Shown here: positions 9,631-9,940 of the stretch, piece by piece
Numbering within the stretch: position 1 is the stretch's first letter
Layout: every line of letters begins with the position of its first letter
IMG/VR virus record: IMGVR_UViG_2778261122_000007
Location: 1-29,245 of that record
DNA: 29,245 nucleotides
Strand: one strand, 5' to 3'
From: a virus
Lineage: Duplodnaviria > Heunggongvirae > Uroviricota > Caudoviricetes
Notes under the pieces: generated by a model
The model's database searches: none
What the model was told of the DNA's origin: nothing
Seen by the model: the letters and a program-made list of their open reading frames with translations, nothing else
Position numbers and translations under genes: made by a program

Positions 9631-9706
9631 GGCCCTTTAGCTCAGTGGTGAGAGCGAGCGACTCATAATCGCCAGGTCGCTGGTTCAAATCCAGCAAGGG
9701 CCACCA
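9631..9706 (+). tRNA. tRNA with CAU anticodon, Ile2 (lysidine) type, ileX/ileZ-like
   Basis: Manual cloverleaf: acceptor GGCCCTT/AAGGGCC, anticodon arm GCGACTCATAATCGC, T-loop TTCAAAT, encoded CCA; very close to my recollection of E. coli ileX. Confidence 0.8.
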
Positions 9707-9707
9707 A

Positions 9708-9784
9708 CCGCCACTAGCTCATCAGGAAAGAGCGTCAACCCTTTAAGTTGAGTGTGCGAGGTTCGAGTCCCCGGTGGCGGTCCA
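9708..9784 (+). tRNA. tRNA-like gene, anticodon loop CCUUUAA (apparent anticodon UUU, Lys); non-canonical C33 and an A-C mismatch in the T-stem
   Basis: Manual fold: acceptor CCGCCAC/GTGGCGG, D-arm GCTC/GAGC, anticodon stem TCAAC/GTTGA, T-loop TTCGAGT, encoded CCA. Identity is uncertain; it could be a degenerate or specialised tRNA. Confidence 0.5.
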
Positions 9785-9786
9785 GT

Positions 9787-9862
9787 GCCGACTTAGCTCA
9801 GTAGGTAGAGCAACTGACTTGTAATCAGTAGGTCACCAGTTCGATTCCGGTAGTCGGCACCA
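9787..9862 (+). tRNA. tRNA-Thr (UGU)-like
   Basis: Manual fold: acceptor GCCGACT/AGTCGGC, anticodon stem ACTGA/TCAGT with loop CTTGTAA, T-loop TTCGATT, encoded CCA; acceptor ends resemble E. coli thrU; one A-C mismatch in the T-stem. Confidence 0.65.
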
Positions 9863-9865
9863 TAT

Positions 9866-9940
9866 GCGGGCATCGTATAATGGCTATTACCTCAGCCTTC
9901 CAAGCTGATGATGCGGGTTCGATTCCCGCTGCCCGCTCCA
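9866..9940 (+). tRNA. tRNA-Gly (UCC), glyT-like
   Basis: Manual fold: acceptor GCGGGCA/TGCCCGC, anticodon stem TCAGC/GCTGA with loop CTTCCAA, T-arm GCGGG-TTCGATT-CCCGC, encoded CCA; appears essentially identical to E. coli glyT as I recall it. Confidence 0.8.

Follow-up and report, generated by a model that had tools for sequence, protein, structure and literature searches.

The window analysed here, a stretch of 29,245 nucleotides from the virus record IMGVR_UViG_2778261122_000007 (Caudoviricetes), is a lambdoid prophage that carries a tight cluster of four tRNA genes (tRNA1 to tRNA4, in the order in which they lie) between the gene of the late antiterminator Q and the holin gene. The second of these genes has the anticodon UUU, but it is evidently not a lysine tRNA by descent: the comparison of its sequence with those of related clusters identifies it as an alloacceptor anticodon shift of a phage tRNA-Arg(UCU) gene, accompanied by the loss of the otherwise nearly constant U33, and the gene now probably decays slowly among neighbours that fit a role in codon supply.

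ARAGORN detects exactly four tRNA genes in the window, all on the plus strand and within positions 9631-9940 (Table 1), and all four form a cloverleaf with stems of 7/4/5/5 bp and exceed the threshold of the Rfam tRNA covariance model (RF00005, gathering score 29 bits), with scores of 44.4-73.8 bits and E-values from 3e-14 to 1.6e-6 that are far above chance. The first-pass annotation of this DNA had described four tRNAs after Q with the anticodons CAU, UUU, UGU and UCC, and both programs bear this out, ARAGORN accepting all four folds with the same anticodons and exactly the same coordinates. CCA is encoded in all four genes, and the spacers between them are 1, 2 and 3 nt long. In RefSeq, a locus that is 99% identical to the window over positions 9400-10200 is annotated with Q, tRNA-Ile, tRNA-Lys, tRNA-Thr and tRNA-Gly, followed by the holin. 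Together, these four genes make up a genuine tRNA operon, carried by a lambdoid Escherichia coli prophage that depends on Q. A tRNA remnant of an integration site (attP) is ruled out, all four genes being full length and lying inside the prophage. Minimum-free-energy folding of each tRNA yielded no cloverleaves, even for the genes that are identical to those of the host, so single-sequence folding is uninformative here and the energies of the cloverleaves were evaluated instead.

In the Rfam alignment, the anticodon loop of tRNA2, CCUUUAA, places C at positions 32 and 33, and the T-stem contains the mismatch A51.C63; the unusual C33 and an A-C mismatch in this stem had been noticed in the first pass. 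The molecule ends in C1-G72 and the discriminator U73. By contrast, U33 is present in tRNA1, tRNA3 and tRNA4, and in 149 of the 168 distinct tRNAs from all fetched loci. Except for two odd environmental predictions, the tRNAs of this set that lack U33 are all built on the tRNA2 scaffold, to which C33 is confined; C33 occurs in every UUU allele seen, with position 32 varying between C, U and A. A shifted register, in which U34 would make the U-turn and UUA would read the ochre stop codon, is unsupported and would leave a single base 3' of the anticodon.

The origin of tRNA2 becomes apparent when the scaffold is followed through other prophages. It is identical to the argN gene of Shiga-toxin (Stx) phages at 65/77 positions and to Arg(UCU) alleles of related clusters at 65-70/77, as against 47/79 for the host lysT. 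Scans of IMG/VR for the scaffold recovered 184 copies representing 38 alleles, with a common body (C1-G72, a D-loop starting with AUC and the same T arm) that carries one of three loops, namely, CUUCUAA (Arg UCU), CUUCGAA (Arg UCG, as in the Stx-phage argN) and CCUUUAA (the window type). The clusters that contain it fall into the types CAU-UUU-UGU-UCC (the window type, 91 loci), CAU-UCG-UCU (29), CAU-UCU-UGU-UCC (26) and CAU-UUU-UCU (12). When the UUU and UCU types of the four-gene cluster are compared, 3, 2 and 0 differing sites are found in tRNA1, tRNA3 and tRNA4, respectively, as against 11 within the slot-2 gene, among them U33C, C35U, U63C (which creates the A51.C63 mismatch) and the discriminator base. 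The UCU alleles are canonical, with Rfam scores of 55-58 bits, compared with 43 for argN and 44.4 for tRNA2. Across 19 alleles of the scaffold, 98.2% of the cells of the cloverleaf are paired and five pairs have changed on both sides; the pair 51-63 occurs as A-U, G.U, G-C and A.C, so that A.C looks like an intermediate state. The scaffold and cluster slot shared with Arg genes, together with the poor likeness to lysT, mark tRNA2 as a shifted Arg(UCU) gene, and the CAU-UCU-UGU-UCC cluster appears, from these alignments, to be the ancestral state of the window cluster. Evolutionary intermediates on this scaffold, that is, U33 with UUU or C33 with UCU or UCG, were not found in the IMG/VR search, which returned unrelated Lys tRNAs or coding sequence, along with one Arg(UCU) allele with A33.

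The A33 allele (loop CAUCUAA) lies on the slot-2 scaffold in a CAU-Arg-Gly cluster (L158:3418-3494 and L202:11013-11089) and shows that the same scaffold has lost U33 a second time. In another cluster, CAU-Arg(UCU)-X-Gly(UCC), seen in one locus (L180:5200-5620, minus strand), X has the scaffold of the host thrU (74/76) and an anticodon that G35U has turned from UGU into UUU, in addition to A26G; to all appearances, a shift to UUU has here occurred a second time, independently, within the same phage tRNA module.

The shift bears on aminoacylation. In E. coli, the identity of tRNA-Lys for LysRS is set by the three anticodon bases and A73, and that of tRNA-Arg for ArgRS by A20, C35, U/G36 and A/G73 (PMC9976931). 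With U35, tRNA2 has lost the main anticodon determinant for arginine and gained the one for lysine, and U73 remains; of the features of a tRNA-Lys, it has the UUU anticodon and lacks both A73 and common descent with the Lys tRNAs. Probably, if tRNA2 is charged at all, this would be done by LysRS through the UUU anticodon, and inefficiently.

Of the 5426 complete E. coli genomes surveyed, 603 contain at least 80% of the cluster, and the tRNA2 type occurs in 798, as an exact copy in 279, with 1-3 differences in 474 and with 4-7 differences in 45. The frequent alleles include a one-base deletion in the D-stem, found in the CAU-UUU-UCU clusters of E. coli that produce Shiga toxin (STEC), and the combination C4U/U8C/C11U, as well as a further G18A or G52A. 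These variants are unannotated in RefSeq, whereas the Ile, Thr, Gly or Arg genes next to them are annotated; the deletion allele scores below the Rfam threshold and yet persists in many STEC genomes alongside intact neighbours. Among 96 IMG/VR clusters, the nucleotide diversity of tRNA2 is 0.020 compared with 0.008, 0.011 and 0.013 for the neighbouring genes. The share of exact copies is 35% (279/798) for tRNA2 as opposed to 91% (2776/3057) for ileZ, the Stx-phage gene that corresponds to tRNA1, although this comparison is unmatched for prophage background or intactness.

Taken together, these observations lead us to put a probability of about 0.6 on the interpretation that tRNA2 is a weakened, slowly decaying, anticodon-shifted gene, still folded and predicted to be still processed: it lacks U33 and the A73 of lysine tRNAs and is under visibly weaker constraint than its neighbours. 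Under this scenario, U33C and C35U would have converted the loop CUUCUAA of the former tRNA-Arg(UCU) of the cluster into CCUUUAA, with the loss of arginine decoding and without any addition to codon supply. Apart from the lack of matching just mentioned, three observations weigh against this interpretation. The commonest tRNA2 allele forms a perfect cloverleaf at -25.5 kcal/mol, which is about its minimum free energy; the stem-breaking variants in IMG/VR are singletons, and the stem variants of higher frequency retain a G.U pair; and the UUU class is found in the 798 E. coli genomes compared with 16 for the one canonical UCU allele tested. Such prevalence would be surprising if the gene were simply defective; hitch-hiking with prophages that are themselves successful could, however, account for it. 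The host range is not broad, in that a scan of representative genomes found the UUU class in E. coli and Shigella flexneri only.

The same prevalence would suit a different role, in which tRNA2 has been recruited either as a functional tRNA-Lys(UUU) or as a decoy against nucleases that remove the tRNA-Lys(UUU) of the host, such as PARIS AriB, PrrC and RloC. Made resistant by a body and an anticodon arm unlike those of the host, tRNA2 would keep lysine codons readable during lytic growth, or else would titrate the nucleases; conceivably, it could do so as a decoder of UUU or as a non-decoding decoy with C33, the arm with C33, G39, U40 and U41 and the D-loop C16 escaping the nucleases or titrating them. 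AriB cuts tRNA-Lys at U36AAUC/A41 (the stroke marks the cut); U39A abolishes the cleavage, A41C and U16C impair it, and phage T5's tRNA-Lys (UAAACC, C16) escapes (PMC12409363; PMC11464382). With UAAGUU at positions 36-41 and C16, tRNA2 differs from the host tRNA-Lys at all three of these published determinants (39, 41 and 16), the host lysT and thrU both having U39, C40, A41 and U16. Moreover, phage tRNA-Lys genes of several genera rescue phages from PrrC170, which E. coli tRNA-Lys hardly does (PMC11555353). A selective reason of this kind would be welcome given that the codons of the prophage do not call for a supply of AAA (see below), and the thrU scaffold, which has changed to UUU independently, could be seen in the same light. 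Several facts, however, make this role rather unlikely. C33 and U73 speak against decoding and lysylation being efficient; the sequence of tRNA2 varies greatly between genomes and is often further degraded; and G39, U40, U41 and C16 are not new but were inherited from the Arg scaffold. In addition, rescue from PARIS generally needed both Lys and Thr variants (PMC12409363), and the accompanying tRNA-Thr(UGU), tRNA3, is identical to that of the host and therefore cleavable, being the host target itself at the AriB positions.

That tRNA2 is already a dead pseudogene, retained solely as a tRNA-shaped spacer whose fold allows the adjoining genes, 1-3 nt away, to be matured correctly by RNase P and 3' trimming, seems to us quite improbable. 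In favour of it are the departures of tRNA2 from the canon at positions 33, 35, 63 and 73, the frequent further decay, the lack of annotation next to annotated neighbours and the largely kept cloverleaf pairs; the D-stem deletion alleles with intact neighbours in STEC, however, imply that an intact fold in this slot is apparently unneeded.

Codon usage separates tRNA2 from the other three genes. The comparison drew on 6698 codons from early and late genes of the phage and on 14748 codons from 42 genes (50 kb) of K-12. ATA accounts for 16% of the Ile codons in the phage and 4% in the host (odds ratio 4.4), ACA for 23% and 10% of the Thr codons (2.6), and GGA and GGG for 19% and 26% of the Gly codons, respectively, as against 8% and 12% in the host (2.8 and 2.6). 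AAA, by contrast, makes up 68% of the Lys codons in the phage and 74% in the host (0.76). It is the major host Lys codon, and the host lysT locus alone contains at least five tRNA-Lys(UUU) genes, so that codon supply does not account for tRNA2. The genes thrU and glyT, the host counterparts of tRNA3 and tRNA4, are single-copy in the host. The usage of AUA, ACA and GGA/GGG, which are rare in the host, fits codon supply by tRNA1, tRNA3 and tRNA4, which would raise the gene dosage of minor host tRNAs. The first-pass annotation had all four tRNAs, tRNA2 included, supply the A-ending codons of the late genes, and every anticodon does pair with NNA codons, three of them enriched; this is nevertheless very improbable as it stands, because AAA is slightly depleted in the late genes (odds ratio 0.71, p = 0.03) and amply served by the host, the frequency of A at third positions is the same in late genes (0.183) and in the host sample (0.177), and the enrichment is stronger in early than in late genes. 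What survives is the supply of ATA, ACA and GGA; what does not is that of AAA and the tie to late genes. The Arg codons AGA (9.7% in the phage, 2.3% in the host; odds ratio 4.6) and AGG (8.8% and 1.3%; 7.6) are enriched as well, and yet the window cluster type is without the Arg(UCU) tRNA that its sister clusters keep.

Another conceivable function concerns a single site. The tail chaperone genes G (Phage_TAC_1) and T (Phage_tail_T), at 21182-21870 of the window, overlap in the -1 frame, with a dnaX-type slippery heptamer, A-AAA-AAG, at 21559-21565, right before the stop codon of G; each of the slip codons is decoded by tRNA(UUU), and tRNA2 could tune slippage there. Just four of the fetched loci reach the tail chaperone gene, too few to assess an association between the UUU class and the frameshift site.

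The other three tRNAs are readily traced. tRNA1 matches the Stx-phage ileZ at every position (76/76) and is less similar to the K-12 genes ileY (70/76) and ileX (68/76), and its acceptor stem, GGCCCUU/AAGGGCC, includes C4-G69 and C5-G68, the determinants for TilS. The CAU anticodon had initially been assigned to the Ile2 type, and this assignment agrees with the likeness to ileY, with these two pairs and with the RefSeq label, tRNA-Ile; tRNA1 is accordingly identified as an Ile2-type tRNA, predicted to read AUA after the host TilS would have converted C34 to lysidine. The ileZ gene is widespread, being present in 3057 of the 5426 E. coli genomes and as an exact copy in 2776.

tRNA3 is the K-12 thrU (76/76) and tRNA4 the K-12 glyT (75/75), so both are evidently host-derived. 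The T-stem mismatch that had been pointed out in the third tRNA is indeed present, as A52.C62 in the Rfam alignment, but, given the identity with thrU, it is native to the host gene. Likewise, the fourth tRNA had been described as essentially identical to glyT and recently captured; the identity holds, and the capture, in which no flanks are shared, is undatable. In the host, both genes belong to one operon, thrU-tyrU-glyT-thrT-tufB. The flanks of tRNA3 and tRNA4 show no homology to this operon, the match being confined to the mature sequences, and capture of thrU-tyrU-glyT-thrT as a block is ruled out, because flank homology, tyrU and the 116-nt spacer are all absent from the phage.

Alleles of both genes in related prophages differ in informative ways. 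A phage Thr(UGU) allele, present in the CAU-UCU-UGU-UCC locus L128, in 19 other IMG/VR loci and also in three loci of the UUU class, differs from thrU solely by two D-loop changes, U16C and U20C, the first of which is reported to impair the cleavage of tRNA-Lys by AriB (PMC12409363). In about 12 IMG/VR loci, homologues of tRNA4 carry a compensatory change in the acceptor stem, C6 to U with the partner G to A, a sign that purifying selection maintains the fold of the phage Gly(UCC) copy.

The cluster is embedded in a set of predicted signals (Table 1) that suggests how it might be expressed. The slot between Q with pR'-tR' and the lysis genes is the one that in Shiga-toxin phages is occupied by ileZ-argN-argO and then stx, and the tRNAs would form a promoter-to-terminator cassette placed in the path of Q-antiterminated late transcription. 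The predicted promoter of the operon ends 9 nt before tRNA1, with the predicted start 1-3 nt before that gene, and the identical sequence is found upstream of ileZ in the Stx2 phage F349; in the lysogen, the strong terminator beyond the cluster is the probable end of the transcripts driven by this promoter. Upon late transcription, the Q-modified polymerase would pass the tR'-like terminator into the tRNAs. Cuts by RNase P and 3' trimming would then release the four tRNAs, given the spacers of 1-3 nt and the encoded CCA. Downstream, the window contains HK97-type head genes and lambda-type tail genes, and induced E. coli phages such as vB_EcoM-606R7 match 77% of its first 25 kb at 95.6% identity.

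Table 1. The tRNA genes of the window together with the surrounding genes and predicted transcription signals
Feature	Position	Strand	Basis and details
Q late antiterminator gene	8725..9420	+	Pfam Phage_antiter_Q, 304.6 bits; upstream of the tRNA cluster
pR'-like late promoter, predicted	9404..9432	+	Consensus scan; TTGCAA-17-TATATT; overlaps the end of Q
tR'-like intrinsic terminator, predicted	9484..9510	+	AAAACCCGC-CCACAA-GCGGGTTTT, then T-run; inverted repeat 9484-9507
Sigma-70-type promoter of the tRNA operon, predicted	9593..9621	+	TTGCAA-17-TATTAT; G+C-rich discriminator
tRNA1, tRNA-Ile2, anticodon CAU	9631-9706	+	ARAGORN; RF00005 72.5 bits
tRNA2, non-canonical tRNA(UUU), loop CCUUUAA	9708-9784	+	ARAGORN; RF00005 44.4 bits
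tRNA3, tRNA-Thr(UGU)	9787-9862	+	ARAGORN; RF00005 73.8 bits
tRNA4, tRNA-Gly(UCC)	9866-9940	+	ARAGORN; RF00005 64.9 bits
Strong intrinsic terminator, predicted	10284..10309	+	8-bp stem with 7 G-C pairs, then T7
Holin gene, P21-type	10428..10643	+	Pfam Phage_holin_2_1, 122.4 bits; first late protein gene downstream
Lysozyme gene	10643-11140		Pfam family match

Matches to small-RNA families lie on both sides of the cluster. The segment from the pR'-like promoter to the terminator (9437-9509) matches isrK and isrJ weakly (22.7 and 24.5 bits), with a start at 9437 that would suit a short transcript from pR', and locus L128 has a full isrK (77.5 bits) directly upstream of its tRNA cluster; these matches suggest that the short late-promoter RNA of these phages belongs to the IsrK family. 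The approximately 490 nt between tRNA4 and the holin gene (9941-10427) are without a convincing open reading frame and include a match to STnc100 at 10132-10312 that stays below the threshold (35.4 bits, gathering score 47, E = 8e-6) and has its 3' end at the strong terminator; in loci L041 and L010, the tRNA clusters are followed downstream by an STnc100 that reaches the full score.

Elsewhere in the early region, a DicF small RNA (175-226, minus strand, 76.7 bits) and a sok antitoxin RNA with a hok-type toxin locus (6542-6712, plus strand, 101.3 bits) are features of cryptic prophages of the Qin/Kim type. Two sets of reverse-strand genes look like inserted accessory genes, with third positions richer in A/T (GC3, the G+C content of third positions, 0.40): a polyketide-cyclase-like protein and a LysR regulator at 4528-6078, lying between the genes for replication and hok/sok (the names are those that RefSeq gives in the ChlosBP-23-1 prophage), and a YfbU-domain protein with faint similarity to the restriction enzyme Bse634I at 12029-12568, between the lysis and terminase genes. 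The prophage with the best-matching tRNA region, at 99.1% identity over window positions 9400-10200, is that of E. coli ChlosBP-23-1 (L001), which carries cdtA, cdtB and cdtC, the genes of the cytolethal distending toxin, after the tail-fibre genes (L001:22755-24799).

The tRNA cluster as such is ordinary: Stx phages have already shown this slot of lambdoid prophages, and hundreds of E. coli genomes in RefSeq carry the annotation Ile/Lys/Thr/Gly for the cluster. Some value attaches to the finding that tRNA2 constitutes a clear natural alloacceptor shift, from Arg(UCU) to UUU, combined with the loss of U33, in about 15% of the complete E. coli genomes, and that the automatic label 'tRNA-Lys' hides its Arg origin. 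If tRNA2 is decaying, it exemplifies the turnover of phage tRNA repertoires and cautions against codon adaptation as the universal reading of phage tRNAs; should it be active, the idea of counter-defence by phage tRNAs would extend from virulent, T5-like phages to temperate ones.

Among the closest known systems is the ileZ-argN-argO cluster of Stx phages, described for phage 933W. In Stx2a_F349 (AP012530.1), this cluster follows Q, pR' and tR', has the same promoter as the window cluster, begins with an identical ileZ and shows the same tight spacing and encoded CCA, and its argN shares with tRNA2 the scaffold, the T arm with A51.C63 and U73. The differences start in slot 2, where argN has UCG with U33 and tRNA2 has UUU with C33; argO (UCU) is absent from the window, which has exact copies of thrU and glyT instead, so that the two Arg tRNAs (UCG and UCU) that follow ileZ in the Stx module are lacking; and no toxin genes follow the window cluster, the non-coding segment with its terminator leading to the holin gene. 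Within the collection of papers searched, nothing was found on ileZ, argN and argO or on this cluster, and the gene names follow GenBank annotation and common usage. The 26 CAU-Arg(UCU)-Thr(UGU)-Gly(UCC) prophage clusters, such as that of L128, agree with the window in slots, order and spacers and have an identical tRNA4; their slot 2, unlike tRNA2, is canonical, with U33, UCU, a paired T-stem and G or A at position 73.

Among virulent phages, the cluster of T4 comprises Ile-CAU, Arg-UCU, Thr-UGU and Gly-UCC with four others, so that the ancestral cluster of the window type corresponds to a subset of the T4 anticodon types. The T4 genes are tightly spaced, as in the window, and co-transcribed, as is predicted there, and their anticodons, again with U34 or a lysidine-modified C34, read NNA codons seldom used in E. 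coli; the T4 tRNAs, however, have diverged from those of the host, whereas the window contains two exact host copies and one shifted anticodon. Phage T5's tRNA-Lys(UUU) resembles tRNA2 in presenting UUU on a body unlike the host tRNA-Lys at positions 39, 41 and 16, but it is canonical, with U33 and A73, and its function is proven, as opposed to the C33, U73 and Arg descent of tRNA2, which is known here from its sequence.

A shift of this kind is not without an experimental parallel. Alloacceptor shifts are rare in Enterobacteriaceae chromosomes, with four in 61 genera, and Saks, Sampson and Abelson (1998), as cited in PMC3923123, changed the anticodon of an E. coli tRNA-Arg from UCU to UGU and thereby rescued the loss of tRNA-Thr(UGU). 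In both cases, a change of the middle anticodon base, position 35, which ranks among the major identity elements for ArgRS as well as LysRS, moves an Arg(UCU) body into the box of another amino acid; the change in tRNA2, in contrast, is a natural event in a phage, leads to UUU and comes together with U33C, and its product would be, at most, putatively functional.

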